IMG/VR virus record: IMGVR_UViG_2728369183_000006
Direction: 5' to 3' (one strand)
DNA: 12,421 bases
Source of the DNA: a virus
Taxonomy: Duplodnaviria > Heunggongvirae > Uroviricota > Caudoviricetes
Both the position numbers and the translations under genes were made by a program. The notes under the pieces are model-generated. The model was not told the DNA's origin. It worked only from the letters and a program-made list of their open reading frames with translations, and ran no database searches. Positions 2,602-12,186 of the stretch are shown piece after piece. Numbering within the stretch: the first letter of the stretch is position 1; the number at the start of each line of letters is the position of its first letter.

Positions 2602-2673
2602 TATTATTTACTCATGTTCTAACTGATTTAATATTTATATCGAACACTGATAATTATTCTATTGGTTAGCTAT

Positions 2674-3012
2674 ATGAACAAAACGATTTTATTCTGCACG
2701 ATTATTGCCTTAACAGGATGTAAGTCTTTGGATTACGTAAAATCCGGAAAACCTGTAATGGAAGGTAATTCATTAAAAAATATTGATGAATTGTCAGGCT
2801 GCATATCCAGACAATGGGCTGGTAATGGAACACCTATAACATCCCTTCCTATTGAGAATGGGGTAAGCCTTTTAGTTCCACAGGCTATGGGGGGATATGA
2901 TGTTGTGCTTGATATCAAAAAAGCAGGAAATGGCAGTAGTTTTACTCTTTATGAACGTGTACCAGCATTAACGCCAAAAATTTTTGCTGATAGTGTTAAT
3001 GCATGTAAATAA
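2674..3012 (+). CDS. Putative outer-membrane lipoprotein, a moron inserted between I and J
   Basis: ORF with the lipoprotein signal MNKTILFCTIIALTG|C (lipobox LTGC; the +2 residue is Lys, not Asp). The longest ORF starts at TTG 2662, but ATG 2674 gives a canonical signal peptide. The segment is markedly AT-rich compared with the flanking tail genes and is followed by an intrinsic terminator. I recognise no homolog. Confidence 0.6.
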   Translation: MNKTILFCTIIALTGCKSLDYVKSGKPVMEGNSLKNIDELSGCISRQWAGNGTPITSLPIENGVSLLVPQAMGGYDVVLDIKKAGNGSSFTLYERVPALTPKIFADSVNACK

Positions 3013-3036
3013 TAGTTAATCCTGCCGTAACTCATG

Positions 3037-3064
3037 AGCCGCCTTTTGGGCGGCTTTGTTGTTT
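3037..3064 (+). terminator. Rho-independent terminator after the lipoprotein moron
   Basis: Stem agccgcc (3037-3043), loop ttttg, stem ggcggct (3049-3055), then the T-rich tract ttgttgttt. Confidence 0.6.
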
Positions 3065-3078
3065 ATGGAGTGTGAGGA

Positions 3079-6000
3079 ATGGGTAAAGGAAGCAGTAAGG
3101 GGCATACCCCGCGCGAAGCGAGGGACAACCTGAAGTCCACGCAGCTGCTGAGTGTGATCGATGCCATCAGCGAAGGGCCGGTTGAAGGTCCGGTGGNNNN
3201 NNNNNNNNNNNNNNNNNNNNNNNNNNNNNNNNNNNNNNNNNNNNNNNNNNNNNNNNNNNNNNNNNNNNACCGGTGCTGGACAGTGAGGGGAATACTAACA
3301 TCTCTGGTGTCACGGTGGTGTTCCGGGCAGGTGAGCAGGAACAGACACCGCCGGAGGGATTTGAATCATCAGGTTCCGAGACGGTACTGGGTACGGAAGT
3401 GAAATACGACACGCCGATCACCCGGACCATCACGTCGGCAAACATTGACCGACTGCGTTTTACCTTCGGTGTGCAGGCACTGGTGGAAACCACCTCAAAG
3501 GGGGACAGGAATCCGTCGGAAGTTCGCCTGCTGGTTCAGATACAACGTAATGGTGGCTGGGTGACGGAAAAAGACATCACCATTAAGGGCAAAACCACCT
3601 CGCAGTATCTGGCCTCGGTGGTGGTGGGTAACCTGCCGCCGCGCCCGTTCAATATACGGATGCGCAGGATGACGCCGGACAGCACCACAGACCAGCTGCA
3701 GAACAAAACGCTCTGGTCGTCATACACCGAAATCATCGATGTGAAACAGGGCTACCCGAACACGGCACTGGTCGGCGTGCAGGTGGATTCGGAGCAGTTC
3801 GGCAGCCAGCAGGTGAGCCGTAATTATCATCTTCGCGGGCGCATTCTGCAGGTGCCGTCGAACTATAACCCGCAGACGCGNNNNNNNNNNACGGTATCTG
3901 GGACGGGACGTTTAAACCGGCATACAGCAACAACATGGCCTGGTGTCTGTGGGATATGCTGACCCACCCGCGCTACGGCATGGGGAAACGTCTTGGTGCG
4001 GCGGATGTGGACAAATGGGCGCTGTATGTCATCGGCCAGTATTGCGATCAGTCAGTGCCGGATGGCTTTGGTGGCACGGAGCCGCGCATCACCTGTAATG
4101 CCTACCTGACCACACAGCGTAAGGCGTGGGATGTTCTCAGTGATTTCTGCTCGGCGATGCGCTGTATGCCGGTATGGAACGGGCAGACGCTGACGTTCGT
4201 GCAGGACCGACCATCAGATAAGGTGTGGACCTATAACCGCAGTAATGTGGTGATGCCGGATGATGGCGCGCCGTTCCGCTACAGCTTCAGCGCCCTGAAG
4301 GACCGCCATAATGCCGTTGAGGTGAACTGGATTGACCCGAATAACGGCTGGGAGACGGCGACAGAGCTTGTTGAAGATACGCAGGCCATTCTCCGTTACG
4401 GTCGTAACGTCACGAAGATGGATGCCTTTGGCTGTACCAGCCGGGGGCAGGCACACCGCGCCGGGCTGTGGCTGATTAAAACGGAGCTGCTGGAAACGCA
4501 GACCGTGGACTTCAGCGTGGGTGCAGAAGGGCTTCGCCATGTACCGGGCGATGTCATTGAAATCTGTGATGATGACTATGCGGGTATCAGCATCGGCGGG
4601 CGCGTGCTGGCGGTGAACAGCCAGACGCGGACACTGACGCTCGACCGTGAAATCACGCTGCCATCCTCCGGCACCACGCTGATAAGCCTGGTTGACGGAC
4701 AGGGGAATCCGGTCAGCGTGGAGGTCCAGTCCGTCACCGACGGCGTGAAGGTGAAAGTGAGCCGTGTTCCTGACGGCGTTGCTGAATACAGCGTGTGGGG
4801 GCTGAAGCTGCCGACGCTGCGCCAGCGCCTGTTCCGCTGCGTGAGTATCCGTGAGAACGACGACGGCACGTATGCCATCACCGCCGTGCAGCATGTACCG
4901 GAAAAAGAAGCCATCGTGGATAACGGGGCGCACTTTGACGGCGACCAGAGCGGCACGGTGAATGGTGTCACGCCGCCAGCGGTGCAGCACCTGACTGCCG
5001 AAGTCACCGCAGACAGCGGGGAATATCAGGTGCTGGCCCGCTGGGACACGCCGAAGGTGGTGAAGGGCGTGAGCTTCCTGCTCCGTCTGACCGTAACAGC
5101 GGATGACGGCAGTGAGCGGCTGGTCAGCACGGCCCGGACGACGGAAACCACATACCGCTTCAGGCAGCTGGCGCTGGGGAACTACAGGCTGACAGTCAGG
5201 GCGGTAAATGCCTGGGGGCAGCAGGGTGATCCGGCGTCGGTATCATTCCGGATTGCCGCACCGGCAGCACCGTCGCGGATTGAGCTGACGCCGGGCTATT
5301 TTCAGATAACCGCCACGCCGCATCTTGCGGTTTATGATCCGACGGTACAGTTTGAGTTCTGGTTCTCGGAAAAACGGATTGCGGATATCAGGCAGGTTGA
5401 AACCAGCGCGCGTTATCTTGGTACGGCACTGTACTGGATAGCCGCCAGTATCAATATCAAACCGGGCCATGATTATTATTTTTACGTTCGCAGTGTGAAC
5501 ACCGTTGGCAAATCGGCATTCGTGGAGGCTGTCGGTCAGCCGAGTGATGATGCATCAGGCTATCTGGATTTTTTCAAAGGCGAGATAGGGAAAACCCATC
5601 TGGCTCAGGAGCTGTGGACGCAGATTGATAACGGTCAGCTTGCGCCTGACCTGACTGAAATCAGGACGTCCATAACGGATGTCAGCAATGAAATAACACA
5701 GACCGTCAATAAGAAACTGGAAGACCAGAGTGCAGCGATCCAGCAGATACAGAAGGTTCAGGTTGATACAAATAATAACCTGAACAGCATGTGGGCAGTG
5801 AAGCTGCAGCAGATGCAGGACGGACGCCTTTATATTGCGGGTATCGGTGCCGGTATTGAGAACACCCCTGACGGCATGCAGAGTCAGGTGCTGCTGGCAG
5901 CAGACAGGATTGCGATGATTAATCCTGCGAATGGCAACACAAAGCCGATGTTTGTTGGTCAGGGCGATCAGATATTCATGAATGAAGTGTTCCTGAAACG

Positions 6001-6601
6001 CCTGACGGCCCCCACCATTACCAGCGGCGGTAATCCTCCGGCATTTTCCCTGACACCGGACGGGCGGCTGACGGCGAAAAATGCCGATATCAGCGGTAAC
6101 GTGAATGCGAACTCCGGGACGCTCAACAACGTCACGATTAACGAGAACTGTCGGGTTCTGGGAAAATTGTCCGCGAACCAGATTGAAGGCGATCTCGTTA
6201 AAACAGTGGGCAAAGCTTTCCCCCGGGACTCCCGTGCACCGGAGCGGTGGCCATCAGGAACCATTACCGTCAGGGTTTATGACGATCAGCCGTTTGACCG
6301 GCAGATTGTTATTCCGGCGGTGGCATTCAGCGGCGCTAAACATGAGAAAGAGCATACTGATATTTACTCCTCATGCCGTCTGATAGTGCGGAAAAACGGT
6401 GCTGAAATTTATAACCGTACCGCGCTGGATAATACGCTGATTTACAGTGGCGTTATTGATATGCCTGCCGGTCACGGTCACATGACACTGGAGTTTTCGG
6501 TGTCAGCATGGCTGGTAAATAACTGGTATCCCACAGCAAGTATCAGCGATTTGCTGGTTGTGGTGATGAAGAAAGCCACTGCAGGCATCACGATTAGCTG
6601 A
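3079..6601 (+). CDS. J: Tail tip host-specificity protein J (central tail fibre), interrupted by N-runs at 3197-3268 and 3881-3890
   Basis: N-terminus [34 protein letters not shown] and long internal stretches match lambda gpJ from memory. The three ORF-track pieces (3079.., 3273.., 3935..6601) are one gene whose frame is broken only at the N-runs. The C-terminal region appears divergent from lambda. Stop is TGA at 6599-6601. Confidence 0.9.
3197..3268. other. Run of 72 N inside gene J
   Basis: Directly visible. From my recollection of lambda J, roughly 11 codons are missing here, so the N count is not a true gap size. Confidence 0.95.
3881..3890. other. Run of 10 N inside gene J
   Basis: Directly visible. 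The J frame shifts by one across it, so the true gap is probably 9 or 12 nt. Confidence 0.95.
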
Positions 6602-6668: not shown

Positions 6669-7268
6669 ATGCGTAAAGTTTGTGCAGCCATTTTGTCCGC
6701 AGCCATCTGTCTGGCCGTATCCGGTGCGCCTGCATGGGCGTCTGAGCAGCAGGCCACACTGAGCGCAGGGTATCTTCATGCCCGTACGAACGCTCCCGGC
6801 AGCGATAATCTGAACGGGATTAACGTGAAATACCGTTATGAGTTTACGGACACGCTGGGGCTGATTACGTCATTCAGTTATGCCAACGCTGAAGATGAGC
6901 AAAAAACGCATTACAGCGATACCCGCTGGCATGAAGATTCCGTGCGTAACCGCTGGTTCAGCGTGATGGCGGGGCCGTCTGTGCGCGTGAATGAATGGTT
7001 CAGCGCGTATGCGATGGCGGGTGTGGCTTACAGCCGTGTGTCGACTTTCTCCGGGGATTATCTGCAGGTGACCGACAATACGGGGAAAACGCACGATGTG
7101 CTGACCGGAAGTGATGACGGTCGCCACAGCAACACGTCTCTGGCGTGGGGGGCTGGCGTGCAGTTTAACCCGACAGAATCCGTGGCCGTTGATGTCGCTT
7201 ATGAAGGCTCCGGCAGCGGTGACTGGCGTACCAACAGTTTCATCGTTGGTGTCGGTTATAAATTCTGA
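6669..7268 (+). CDS. lom: Lom outer-membrane protein (Ail/Lom/OmpX family beta-barrel)
   Basis: 199-aa translation ([26 protein letters not shown]... ...FIVGVGYKF) matches lambda Lom from memory. It has an N-terminal signal peptide, a C-terminal aromatic residue, and GAGAGG-like RBS upstream. Confidence 0.9.
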
Positions 7269-7332: not shown

Positions 7333-10300
7333 ATGGCAGTAAAGATTTCAGGTGTACTGAAAGACGGCACAGGAAAACCGGTACAGAACTGCACAATCCA
7401 GCTGAAAGCAAAACGTAACAGCACCACGGTGGTGGTGAACACGCTGGCCTCAGAAAATCCGGATGAAGCCGGGCGTTACAGCATGGACGTTGAGTACGGT
7501 CAGTACAGCGTTATTCTGTTGGTGGAAGGATTCCCGCCGTCACATGCCGGGACCATCACCGTGTATGAAGATTCCCGACCCGGTACGCTGAATGATTTTC
7601 TCGGTGCCATGACGGAGGATGATGCCCGTCCTGAGGCACTGCGCCGCTTTGAACTGATGGTGGAAGAGGTGGCGCGTAACGCGTCCGCGGTGGCACAGAA
7701 CACGGCAGCCGCGAAGAAATCAGCCAGCGATGCCAGCACATCAGCCCGTGAGGCGGCAACCCGTGCGACTGATGCTGCAGGCTCAGCACGAGCAGCCAGC
7801 ACGTCAGCCGGACAGGCCGCTTCGTCGGCTCAGTCTGCGTCTTCCAGCGCAGGAACGGCATCAGCAAAGGCCACTGAAGCATCAAAAAGTGCTGCCGCTG
7901 CAGAGTCCTCAAAAAGCGCGGCGGCCACCAGTGCCGGTGCGGCGAAAACGTCAGAAACGAATGCGGCAGCGTCACAACAATCAGCTGCCACTTCTGCATC
8001 CACCGCGACCACGAAAGCGTCAGAAGCAGCCACCTCAGCCAGAGATGCGTCGGCTTCAAAAGAGGCGGCAAAATTATCAGAAACGAGCGCAGCCTCGAGC
8101 GCCAGTAATGCCGCTTCCTCGGCAACGGCGGCAGGAAATTCCGCGAAGGCGGCAAAGACGTCTGAGACAAACGCTAAGTCCTCTGAAACGGCAGCAGCAC
8201 AGAGTGCCTCCGCAGCAGCAGGCTCAAAAACAGCGGCTGCGTCGTCTGCCAGTGCAGCGTCAACAAGTGCCGGGCAGGCCTCAGCCAGTGCTAGCGCCGC
8301 CGGAAAATCGGCAGAAAGCGCCGCATCGTCCGCTTCAACAGCCACAACGAAGGCTGGCGAAGCCACTGAACAGGCCAGTGCAGCAGCGAGGTCTGCTTCC
8401 GCAGCGAAGACATCGGAGACGAACGCGAAAGCGTCGGAGACCAGCGCAGAATCCTCAAAAACGGCTGCCGCATCGTCCGCCAGTTCGGCGGCGTCATCGG
8501 CATCATCGGCGTCTGCTTCAAAAGATGAGGCGACCAGACAGGCGTCAGCAGCGAAGGGCAGCGCCACGACAGCATCCGCGAAGGCGACAGAGGCAGCTGG
8601 CAGTGCGACGGCGGCAGCACAGAGCAAAAGTACGGCGGAATCCGCGGCAACGCGCGCCGAGACAGCGGCAAAACGGGCAGAGGATATTGCATCCGCCGTG
8701 GCGCTTGAGGATGCAAGTACGACGAAAAAGGGGATAGTACAGCTCAGCAGTGCGACCAACATCACATCTGAAACGCTTGCCGCGACACCGAAGGCAGTTA
8801 AAGCAGCGAATGACAATGCGAATGGCAGGGTACCATCTAACCGAAAAGTTAACGGGAAAGCACTGACTGCGGATATAACATTAACACCGAAAGATATTGG
8901 CACTTTAAATTCAGTAACGATCTCTTTCTCTGGCGGGGCTGGGTGGTTCAAACTGGCAACGGTTACCATGCCACAAGCGAGTTCCATCGTTTACATCGCA
9001 TTGATTGGTGGCGCTGGTTACAACGTCGGTTCCCCACATCAGGCAGGCATTTCAGAACTGGTTCTACGAGCAGGCAATGGAAACCCCAAAGGAATTACCG
9101 GGGCTTTGTGGAAGCGTACAGCCGTCGGATTAACGAATTTCGCCTGGATCAACACATCCGGCGATACATATGATATTTACGTTGAGATTGGCAATTATGC
9201 GACGAGTGTAAATATCCATTGGGATTGTACTGCAAATGCGTCAGTTTCTATTTATACCTCGCCAACATATTCAGCGAGTAAGCCTTCCAGCGTTACCGGT
9301 GGTGTTGTTTATACGATGTATAGCTCACATCAGAAACCTACACCATCAGATATTGGAGCGCTGCCAACGACTGGAGGGACTATTTCAGGTCCGTTGTCTG
9401 TTACTGATGGGATCACCGGGGCACTGAAGGGGAACGCCGATACCGCGACGAAACTTGCGGCAGCCCCAAAAATTAACGGTGTTAAGTTTGATGGCTCGGC
9501 GGATATTAACCTCACGCCGGAAAATATTGGTGCATTTGCCCGACGTTCGACGGGGGCTTATGCGGATTCGAATGGAGCCGTTCCCTGGAATGCCGAATCA
9601 GGCGCTTACAATGTCGCCCGCTCTGGCGACAGCTATATTCTGGTTAACTTCTATACCGGAGTCGGAAGTTGCCGGACCCTGCAGATGAAGGCGCATTACA
9701 GAAATCGTGGTCTGTTCTACCGTTCTTCAAGAGACGGTTATGGTTTTGAGGAAGACTGGGCAGAAGTTTATACCTCGAAAAATCTTCCACCAGAAAGCTA
9801 CCCAGTTGGCGCACCAATCCCGTGGCCATCAGATACCGTTCCGTCTGGTTATGCCCTGATGCAGGGGCAGACTTTTAACAAATCTGCCTACCCGAAACTT
9901 GCAGCGGCTTATCCGTCAGGCGTGATCCCTGATATGCGTGGCTGGACGATTAAGGGCAAACCCGCCAGTGGCCGGGCCGTATTGTCTCAGGAACAGGACG
10001 GCATAAAATCGCACACCCACAGCGCCAGCGCATCCAGTACGGATTTGGGGACGAAAACCACATCGTCGTTTGATTACGGCACTAAATCCACGAATAACAC
10101 CGGGGCGCATACGCACAGTCTGAGTGGCTCTACGGGGTCTGCCGGTGTTCATACTCATGGTAATGGTATTCGTTGGCCAGGAGGCGGCGGTTCTGCGTTA
10201 GCATTTTATGATGGCGGTGGGTTCACTTATGTCCAGAATTCACAGTATCAAGTAAGCCCGGAGACTTCTTCCTATAGATCGTATTATCAACGTATTCAGA

Positions 10301-10503: not shown

Positions 10504-11087
10504 TGGCATTCAGAATGAGTGAACAAGCACGGACCATAAAAATTTATAATCTGCTGGCCGGAACTAATGAATTTATTGGTGAAGGTGACGCATATATTCC
10601 GCCTCATACAGGTCTGCCAGCAAACAGTACCGATATTGCACCACCAGATATTCCTGCTGGCTTTGTGGCTGTTTTCAACAGTGATGAGGCATCGTGGCAT
10701 CTCGTTGAAGACCATCGGGGGAAAACGGTTTATGACGTAGCGTCAGGGGACGAGTTATTTATTTCTGAACTCGGTCCGTTACCGGAAAATGTTACCTGGT
10801 TATCGCCGGAAGGGGAGTTTCAGAAGTGGAACGGCACAGCCTGGGTGAAGGATACGGAAGCAGAAAAACTGTTCCGGATCCGGGAGGCGGAAGAAACAAA
10901 AAACAACCTGATGCAGGTAGCCAGTGAGCATATTGCGCCGCTTCAGGATGCTGCAGATCTGGAAATTGCAACGGAGGAAGAAACCTCATTGCTGGAAGCC
11001 TGGAAAAAGTATCGGGTGTTGCTGAACCGTGTTGATACATCAACTGCACCTGATATTGAGTGGCCTACGAACCCTGTCAGGGAGTAA
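10503..11087 (+). CDS. tfa: Tail fibre assembly protein Tfa
   Basis: 194-aa translation ([54 protein letters not shown]...) matches lambda Tfa from memory. Its ATG overlaps the stf stop (TAATG at 10501-10505). Confidence 0.9.
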
Positions 11088-11137
11088 TCATTGGGATTAT
11101 GCCGCAGCACGTCTTAAGCAAGAACGTGCTGCGGTTG
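10922..11137 (+). repeat. Direct repeat copy A: tfa 3' end plus downstream hairpin
   Basis: About 216 bp that align by eye with 11971-12186 at roughly 85-90% identity. No computed alignment was made. Confidence 0.7.
11102..11134. terminator. Hairpin between convergent tfa and methyltransferase genes, a possible bidirectional terminator
   Basis: Stem ccgcagcacg (11102-11111) pairs with cgtgctgcgg (11125-11134) around a 13-nt loop. A T-run follows at 11145-11150, overlapping the methyltransferase stop. Confidence 0.45.
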
Positions 11138-11141
11138 GATG

Positions 11142-11810
11142 CTATTTTTTCCCTGAAGCGGAAAACATTACTACAGTACCTTGAACCTTGGTTTTAACAT
11201 TCTCGAAATGCTCTGAGAGTATATGTGTTAAGCCTTCTTCGGAATCTTTTGTGTTTGAAAAGATGCCTTTCTGATTGTAAATGCGCATCAGTTTTTGACC
11301 GAAGCTATTGTGCACAACTCCATCGCCAAGAATTGTGGCTCCGTATAGAGTTCCATCGTCAGTTAAGGCCTGCGCCGCATTGCGTATTACACAGCTTTTT
11401 GTAGATATATTTCCAGGCAGGCAGTGAAGAAGGTAAAACATGGAAATGGAATCAAATTGACCATGTAACGCCGCGGGATAAGGTTCAAAAACATCATGGC
11501 TAATTTTATGTTTAATTTTTGATTCCCCAGCCCTTGTAGATGCCGCGTTCAGGCTAGCTTCGTTCAAATCCATTAAAGATATCAGACTACTCTCAGGTAC
11601 GTGAGTAAGGTAAAACCCAGTTCCAACACCAATATCCAGATGGTTGTTACCTACATGTTCCAGAAAGTGTGGAAGAAGGTGTTCCTTTGTAGGACATCCC
11701 CATGCAAGCCGATTTGATACTCCCAAAACCCACCAGTCATAAAGCTTTAGGGTAAGTGGTGTGTAAATTTTAGCCCCATCATCTGTGTTTTTTTTCATTG
11801 ATTTCACCAT
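11142..11810 (-). CDS. Class I SAM-dependent methyltransferase, unknown substrate (accessory cargo gene)
   Basis: Minus-strand ORF of 222 aa. An alternative start at 11798 (MKKNTDDG...) has a GGTGA-like RBS. Rossmann motif I is present (HLDIGVGTGFY), with an acidic residue after beta2 (SLMD) and a FDSISMFYLLHCLP-type motif. No DPPY/NPPY motif is visible, so a DNA N6/N4-methyltransferase seems unlikely. The segment is AT-rich. Confidence 0.7.
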   Translation of the reverse strand: MVKSMKKNTDDGAKIYTPLTLKLYDWWVLGVSNRLAWGCPTKEHLLPHFLEHVGNNHLDIGVGTGFYLTHVPESSLISLMDLNEASLNAASTRAGESKIKHKISHDVFEPYPAALHGQFDSISMFYLLHCLPGNISTKSCVIRNAAQALTDDGTLYGATILGDGVVHNSFGQKLMRIYNQKGIFSNTKDSEEGLTHILSEHFENVKTKVQGTVVMFSASGKK

Positions 11811-11866: not shown

Positions 11867-12136
11867 ATGCTGCCGCAGCATAGCGATATTGAAATAGCCT
11901 GGTATGCTTCGATACAGCAGGAGCCGAATGGCTGGAAGACCGTCACCACACAGTTCTACATCCAGGAATTCAGTGAGTATATTGCGCCACTGCAGGATGC
12001 TGTAGATCTGGAAATCGCAACGGAGGAAGAAAGATCGTTGCTGGAGGCATGGAATAAATATCGGGTATTGTTGAATCGTGTTGATACATCAACTGCACCT
12101 GATATTGAGTGGCCTGCAAACCCTGTCAGGGAGTAA
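11867..12136 (+). CDS. Tfa-like ORF (89 aa): novel 36-aa N-terminus fused to a conserved Tfa C-terminal domain; possibly a functional mini-Tfa or a remnant
   Basis: The C-terminal 54 aa ([54 protein letters not shown]) differ from the tfa C-terminus at only about 5 positions. An AAGGGG RBS lies 4 nt upstream of the ATG. Confidence 0.5.
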
Positions 12137-12186
12137 TCATTGGGATTATGCCGCAGACACGTCGTATGCAGGAACGTGCTGCGGTT
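11971..12186 (+). repeat. Direct repeat copy B: tfa-like 3' end plus downstream hairpin
   Basis: Aligns by eye with 10922-11137. It includes an imperfect copy of the hairpin (ccgcagacacgt...acgtgctgcgg at 12151-12184). Confidence 0.7.

Follow-up and report, generated by a model that had tools for sequence, protein, structure and literature searches.

The window analysed here, 12,421 nt of a virus record (IMG/VR IMGVR_UViG_2728369183_000006), is the tail module of a lambda-like Escherichia coli prophage, and between its tail genes I and J lies a gene for a 112-residue prolipoprotein of the phrog_914 family. We conclude, with a probability of roughly nine in ten, that the product is an exported lipoprotein of outer-membrane type that is carried as mobile accessory cargo. 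It is most likely an envelope lipoprotein of lysogenic conversion and possibly a general phage-exclusion factor. The segment that encodes it is a moron-type accessory cassette, inserted horizontally at the I/J junction just upstream of a resident hairpin. The prophage of E. coli strain AR_0017, which adjoins ompW'/yciE/trpA, is 99.5-100% identical to the window.

The I/J insert and the lipoprotein it encodes

The insert is flanked on the left by tail assembly gene I (1960-2601, + strand; Pfam Lambda_tail_I, E 4e-24; annotated 'tail assembly protein' in AR_0017) and on the right by the tail tip/host-specificity gene J (3079-6601, + strand), which has the lambda-J N-terminus and is broken by runs of N in the window. 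The spacer between them (2602-3078) is 477 bp long, compared with 60 bp in lambda, and its guanine plus cytosine (GC) content is 0.361, falling to 0.222 in the first 72 nt (2602-2673), against 0.579 for K/I and 0.563 for J. The AT-rich insert of about 470 bp that a first-pass annotation had reported between I and J is thus borne out. A similar dip in GC is found in six enterobacterial tail-operon relatives, at 0.39-0.43 between flanks of 0.51-0.56. When aligned with the empty junctions of lambda, O157:H7 and strain ST3, the inserted DNA stands in place of a 17-nt stretch. Each edge of the insert bears the 8-mer TTGGGCGG, on the left in the last codons of I (2594-2601) and on the right in the 3' arm of the hairpin (3047-3054), and the left-edge position reads GGTCGC in empty sites; the 8-mer could reflect insertion microhomology or chance.

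Empty junctions are by far the commoner state in E. coli. A synthetic empty-junction query of 362 bp found matches at 8687 places in 4297 genomes, and 337 of 5426 complete E. coli genomes carry the insert itself (at least 95% identity), with a total of 349 places, giving approximately 8300 empty against 349 filled junctions, with some 96% lacking the insert. The one-piece matches to the empty-junction query that were sampled (379 bp for the 362-bp query) cross the hairpin unbroken. This hairpin (3036-3056) consists of a 9-bp G+C-rich stem followed by a T-rich tail, TGTTGTTT, so that the whole terminator-like element, as defined by the terminator scan, its folding energy and alignment with empty sites, spans 3036-3064 on the + strand. 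Its folding free energy is -15.4 kcal/mol here and -16.5 kcal/mol in lambda, and a homologous hairpin is found at the same distance from J in insert-free lambda, in the O157:H7 prophage and in strain ST3. Because empty junctions carry this homologous hairpin, we regard it as a resident feature of the I/J junction that is now used by the insert; the DNA that is truly extra, as judged by junction alignments and the empty-site search, therefore extends over approximately 2602-3032 (+ strand). The earlier view that the insert ends in a terminator of its own is weakened by this comparison, the hairpin being homologous to one in lambda and in the roughly 8300 empty junctions.

A promoter of its own is likewise hard to find. 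The AT-rich leader (2602-2673, + strand) has a weak Shine-Dalgarno match and contains the sequence TGATAAT (2648-2654), which had been taken as a weak promoter hint. However, a 5/6 match to TATAAT is present in 93% of shuffles of the 72-nt spacer, the best summed -35/-10 match (8 of 12) is reached by 90% of shuffles, and a promoter scan found no consensus promoter on the + strand at the insert, so this hint is no better than chance. A moron has been defined as extra DNA of deviant GC content with its own promoter and terminator (PMC3594210). Extra DNA between neighbouring genes and deviant GC are both found in the insert, whereas the consensus scan and the shuffles revealed no promoter belonging to it.

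The prolipoprotein gene itself occupies 2674-3012 on the + strand (ATG at 2674, stop at 3010-3012) and is defined by its translation and its profile match. Its product starts with MNKTILFCTIIALTG followed by CKSLD, with a basic residue at K3, an uncharged hydrophobic stretch and the lipobox LTGC at residues 13-16. The signal peptide comprises residues 1-15 (2674-2718), the codon of Cys16 lies at 2719-2721, and a mature domain of approximately 96 residues follows. This protein and 124 of 135 family proteins conform to a PROSITE-type lipoprotein rule, which calls for positive charge in the n-region, hydrophobicity in the h-region and, within about 35 residues of the start, the cysteine of a lipobox [LVI][ASTVI][GAS]C; the earlier lipoprotein call is upheld at the level of these sequence rules for a signal peptidase II substrate. 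In E. coli, the Lol system sorts lipoproteins without Asp at position +2 to the outer membrane. The +2 residue is Lys here and A, S, T, K, V, G, E, L, Y or M across the family, never Asp, and by this rule we infer that the window lipoprotein would be sorted to the outer membrane.

Conservation of the protein points in the same direction. The signal peptide, the lipobox and two cysteines besides that of the lipobox recur in homologues from Klebsiella, Enterobacter, Kluyvera and Jejubacter that are 50-62% identical. Among 54 aligned members only C16, C43 and C111 are invariant, with P27, W48 and G63 nearly so, suggesting that C43 and C111 probably form a disulfide in the exported domain. Between genera, the non-synonymous proportion (pN) is 0.09-0.34 and the synonymous proportion (pS) 0.64-0.82; the E. 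coli alleles show 11 synonymous and 6 non-synonymous variant codons. As pN is far below pS, these features are conserved and 62 of 65 E. coli-type copies are intact, we consider the gene real and under purifying selection. A run of six G residues (2889-2894) falls within the motif that is most conserved in the lipoprotein (M72-G73-G74), and two of the 65 copies are frameshifted directly after it, the third frameshifted copy breaking elsewhere; the frameshifts after the run could stem from sequencing error, decay or slippage. Two database entries differ in their N-terminus: WP_001300316.1 is an 84-residue fragment that begins at Met29 (locus L001, 12259-12513; window 2758-3012) and is missing the signal peptide, whereas WP_001332187.1 is the full 112 residues (locus L016, 5074-5412). 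The long form is favoured because the N-terminus is conserved across genera.

The protein matches phrog_914, a family listed as 'unknown function', with E 7.3e-33 over residues 1-112 on profile positions 1-118, and all 54 aligned relatives match it too. An exhaustive profile search returned 125 clusters (at 50% identity) of proteins of approximately 110-120 residues, with members in the cultured Escherichia phages Fraca and LMessi, Serratia phage OS31 and Klebsiella phage phiKO2; a scan of the genome contigs for the family gave one locus only. No family for the window protein was found in Pfam, NCBIfam or PADLOC. The sole NCBIfam match, VirB7, was rejected as it covers the signal peptide and scores far under the cut-off. 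Pfam searches over the family members gave nothing beyond three isolated chance-level matches, and a profile search against PDB sequences gave chance matches to signal peptides only. Literature searches on the protein accessions, phrog_914 and XCC2962, the Xanthomonas gene named in the phiKO2 record, returned nothing.

A confident AlphaFold2 model built from 12 sequences (pLDDT 83.7, pTM 0.76) has the order short helix, strand, long helix, four strands and C-terminal helix. Its best viral structure match is an uncharacterised protein of Pseudomonas phage phiAH14a, with a TM score of 0.83 on the target. Membership of DUF3568, the family of the Francisella tularensis lipoprotein Flpp3, was considered and rejected, there being no Pfam match and a weak fold match (TM 0.52, 6-9% identity). 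The fold class is a common one, with DUF302, KA1 domains and the BamC N-domain scoring nearly as high as Flpp3.

Mobility of the family

The positions occupied by phrog_914 members differ markedly between phages. Gene order at 92 retrieved loci was worked out by tblastn, the AR_0017 tail proteins serving as queries. The I/J placement was found at 63 loci, all of them carrying the E. coli allele, and the K/I placement at 14 (Klebsiella, Kluyvera, Fraca/LMessi and metagenomic phages), with phiKO2 and Serratia phage OS31 also placing their member at K/I by their own annotation. A further seven loci have the gene just upstream of the tape-measure gene H, and the T/H position in Enterobacter is the slot of gp15 in HK97. 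All 84 tail-operon copies are oriented with the late genes. A hairpin and T run lie downstream of each K/I and T/H relative; that of the Klebsiella relative was confirmed by the scan, and the phiKO2 record annotates a putative terminator.

Other members sit outside the tail operon altogether. The region downstream of a cI-like gene is a classic site of lysogen-expressed genes. In a Burkholderia gladioli prophage (locus L093, 6125-7342), the family member lies on the same strand as a cI-like HTH_3 gene and approximately 400 bp downstream of it, with a YdaS/Cro-like gene of this region on the opposite strand. Further downstream in the same prophage are bAvd and reverse-transcriptase genes, which suggests a diversity-generating retroelement. 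Distant members are found in an early/replication region, on the strand opposite to their neighbours, and in a genomic island. At the K/I tail junction of a metagenomic prophage (locus L082, 1063-5911), approximately 4-4.8 kb of cargo is present, in which the phrog_914 lipoprotein gene comes directly after a helix-turn-helix (HTH) regulator and is followed by the gene for another, unrelated lipoprotein of 149 residues (phrog_3152). The same cargo includes a 133-residue minus-strand open reading frame (ORF) and ORFs of 238, 242 and 309 residues that look KilA-N/ANT-like by eye.

The K/I junction looks like a cargo hot spot. In HK97, the 321-bp gap between K and I (locus L101, 6513-6835; HK97 13512-13834) has no annotated gene and closes with a putative terminator given in the annotation; it could be a moron slot, empty or decayed, in the position that most relatives of the lipoprotein occupy. 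One carrier of the whole tail module with its lipoprotein (locus L019) is a 150-kb record annotated as plasmid pMS20655A, which suggests a phage-plasmid or a plasmid-integrated prophage.

The closest precedents are found in phiKO2 and HK97. Gp19 of phiKO2 belongs to the same family as the window protein (hhalign probability 98.8%; phrog_914 E 2.5e-23) and resembles it in length, lipobox and cysteines, as well as in lying in a lambda-like tail operon with a predicted terminator after it; the two differ in that Gp19 is encoded at K/I and is only approximately 24% identical in the profile alignment. Its GenBank note reads 'putative moron gene product; similar to Xanthomonas gene XCC2962'. The tail-operon morons of HK97 were reportedly described by Juhala et al. 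in 2000. Like the window, HK97 has extra genes wedged into T/H and I/J of a lambdoid tail operon, its record listing a 'moron product' at T/H (gp15) and at I/J (gp22, with the reverse moron gp23) and a putative terminator just before J. Despite this shared location, HK97 gp22 has neither similarity to the window protein nor a lipoprotein signal, and homology between them was rejected. Gp15, whose slot houses the Enterobacter relatives, is also unrelated to the window protein; it is a proven inner-membrane superinfection-exclusion protein (Cumby et al. 2012, PMC3594210).

Since its sites vary in this way across phages, we consider the family to be mobile cargo that is not functionally tied to J. 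The 'moron' reading of the first-pass annotation is consistent with this behavior and with the presence of extra DNA of foreign composition between genes that are adjacent in lambda.

Candidate functions of the lipoprotein

The proximity of the gene to J had led to the proposal that its product blocks the receptor used by J. Cor of phi80, N15 and HK022 and Llp of T5 are outer-membrane lipoproteins that inactivate FhuA. Such proteins act as lysogenic-conversion or exclusion factors and are encoded near tail or receptor-binding genes (background in part from PMC4936722), a description that the window protein fits as a small phage lipoprotein. A Cor/Llp-like protein that binds and inactivates the outer-membrane receptor of J or of the side tail fibre would shield the lysogen against superinfection and the progeny against debris. 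In favor of this idea are the gene's position beside J in E. coli, the outer-membrane type of its product and the same proposal for a lipoprotein gene at K/I in Pseudomonas phage AH14a, likened to cor by position (PMC4936722). The C-terminal tip type of the window's J also recurs in 22 of the 28 loci in which the neighbouring J is complete, the others forming four further clusters. However, no tip type is more frequent in E. coli than this one (7466 places in 3378 genomes, with up to nine per genome), which is about 20 times commoner without the insert than with it (7466 versus 349 places). The association was therefore rejected as a base-rate effect.

Comparison of individual loci argues against any closer linkage. 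Across five E. coli genomes the lipoprotein is 98-100% identical, yet over its C-terminal 150 residues the J next to it shares 96, 91, 65 and 40% identity with that of AR_0017 and 41% with that of lambda. At one locus (L018), the tape-measure protein has 27% identity beside a lipoprotein of 99%, and the J proteins found next to relatives of approximately 50% identity range in length from 1186 to more than 3300 residues. In other phages the family is found at K/I, at T/H or outside tail operons. Homology to Cor was also rejected: hhalign against the Cor profile (phrog_1119) aligns 31 columns only, covering the signal peptide and lipobox and leaving the mature domain unaligned, and only two of the 54 members touch phrog_1119 (E 5e-4). 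The mature domain of the window protein, at approximately 96 residues, is larger than the whole Cor precursor of phage Fraca (77 residues), and Fraca carries a family member together with a separate cor gene. Given this lack of co-variation with J, a Cor/Llp-style lock on J's own receptor is not supported, and we think a receptor-specific blocker distinctly unlikely. Of the earlier interpretation, the moron, the lipoprotein and the foreign DNA thus stand, while the link to the J receptor, the promoter and the separate terminator find no support. It would have counted against the interpretation as a whole had this ORF turned up at I-J in a well-studied phage and had an established, unrelated role there. 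This was not the case: phiKO2 Gp19 is without known function and the I/J moron of HK97 is a different protein.

In the model that we prefer, signal peptidase II would cut between LTG and C, Cys16 would be lipidated, and the Lol pathway would carry the lipoprotein to the outer membrane, residue +2 being Lys and not Asp. The mature part would form a compact domain of approximately 96 residues (strand, helix, four strands, helix) locked by the C43-C111 disulfide. Expression could come from late read-through, from some other promoter, or from both, and the relatives that adjoin a cI-like gene or an HTH regulator provide an indirect hint of expression from the repressed prophage. The lipoprotein would then be cargo that benefits the lysogen rather than a component of the virion or of tail assembly, and the envelope so modified may exclude incoming phages or other envelope-crossing agents. 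It would act on a conserved component of the host envelope or on a general step of entry in the periplasm, not on the particular receptor of J. Exclusion activity is proposed because of the analogy with tail-operon morons and phage lipoproteins and because of the contexts beside repressor or regulator genes. By this analogy, envelope-level phage exclusion independent of J's receptor is a tentative suggestion to which we assign slightly less than even odds. Several points weigh against it: no homology to a characterised exclusion protein emerged from the Cor profile, PADLOC, Pfam or NCBIfam, the Cor match being confined to the signal peptide; scans for a consensus promoter came up empty both at the insert and upstream of three relatives; our literature searches yielded no experiment on any family member; and, as the lipoprotein does not co-vary with J, the genomic argument on which a receptor blocker would usually rest is missing.

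Three further functions would also be compatible with an exported lipoprotein. A role in host interaction or virulence, of the Bor/Iss or Flpp3 type, would confer serum resistance, adhesion or host survival while leaving phages unaffected. This seems unlikely, as the resemblance to Flpp3 is confined to the weak fold match noted above, no similarity to Bor or Iss was detected, and the hosts include environmental and plant-associated ones (Burkholderia gladioli, a mine-biofilm Serratia phage and a phage from rotten tomato). The uniform orientation of the tail-operon copies with the late genes, together with the failure to detect a promoter, would suit a helper of the lytic cycle, expressed from the late tail operon only, that conditions the envelope for lysis and release or protects progeny and has no role in the lysogen. 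On the other hand, the gene is dispensable, being absent from most I/J junctions, copies in other phages adjoin a repressor gene or are encoded on the other strand from early genes, and the terminator-like hairpins after the K/I and T/H copies fit an independent unit; we judge a lytic helper to be rather improbable. It is also conceivable that the lipoprotein is an immunity or inhibitor protein directed against an envelope-attacking enzyme or toxin, such as a peptidoglycan hydrolase (for example the NlpC/P60 domain of K), a type VI effector or a bacteriocin. Its predicted periplasmic/outer-membrane location suits such proteins and, in most phages from outside E. coli, the gene directly follows K, which has JAB and NlpC/P60 domains. 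However, this adjacency is lost in E. coli, Enterobacter and Burkholderia, and no similarity to known inhibitor families was found in Pfam, NCBIfam or PDB, making an inhibitor very improbable.

More broadly, phrog_914 might represent a widespread and unrecognised class of envelope protection factor, acting independently of the receptor and hopping as cargo between temperate phages of Proteobacteria, lambda-like ones among them. We put this forward as a doubtful generalisation. In the periplasm, its members might intercept the tape-measure protein or the tail tip; alternatively, they might mask a conserved envelope component.

Other features of the window and wider meaning

Besides I, the window contains Pfam matches for K (JAB and NlpC/P60), Lom (Ail_Lom), Tfa and, on the opposite strand, an S-adenosylmethionine (SAM)-dependent methyltransferase. 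Its three runs of N (744-878, 3197-3268 and 3881-3890; 135, 72 and 10 nt) are not length-preserving: by comparison with AR_0017, the 135 N stand for 85 real bases and the 72 N for 31. The J gene of the window appears split into three frames (3079-3402, 3273-3962 and 3935-6601), while that of AR_0017 is intact at 1159 residues. We therefore dismissed the frameshifts in the window's J as an artefact of the length-changing N runs rather than biology.

Between J and stf, as in lambda, there is a full-length gene for an Ail/Lom outer-membrane beta-barrel (6669-7268; Pfam E 3e-125), the second accessory gene of the tail module that is directed at the envelope. Some prophages that carry the lipoprotein and are alike in other respects (loci L017 and L019) have no such gene. 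Just after tfa, a class I SAM-dependent methyltransferase is encoded on the - strand (11142-11810), flanked by a 216-bp direct repeat of approximately 90% identity (10922-11136 and 11971-12186) that consists of fragments of a tail-fibre-assembly gene. The methyltransferase looks like a further cargo insertion or a remnant of tail-fibre cassette exchange.

The lipoprotein described here is an additional member of an already described family and architecture, tail-operon morons having been described since 2000. For the phrog_914 family, closeness to J should not count as evidence of receptor blocking. The RefSeq annotation of the 84-residue fragment conceals the lipoprotein signal and needs correction. 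Carriers make up approximately 6% of complete E. coli genomes, including O104:H4 and extraintestinal pathogenic E. coli (ExPEC), and relatives occur in Klebsiella and Enterobacter. If the lipoprotein does exclude phages, it would be one more common prophage-borne resistance determinant, and as such would bear on the prediction of phage host range and on phage therapy.
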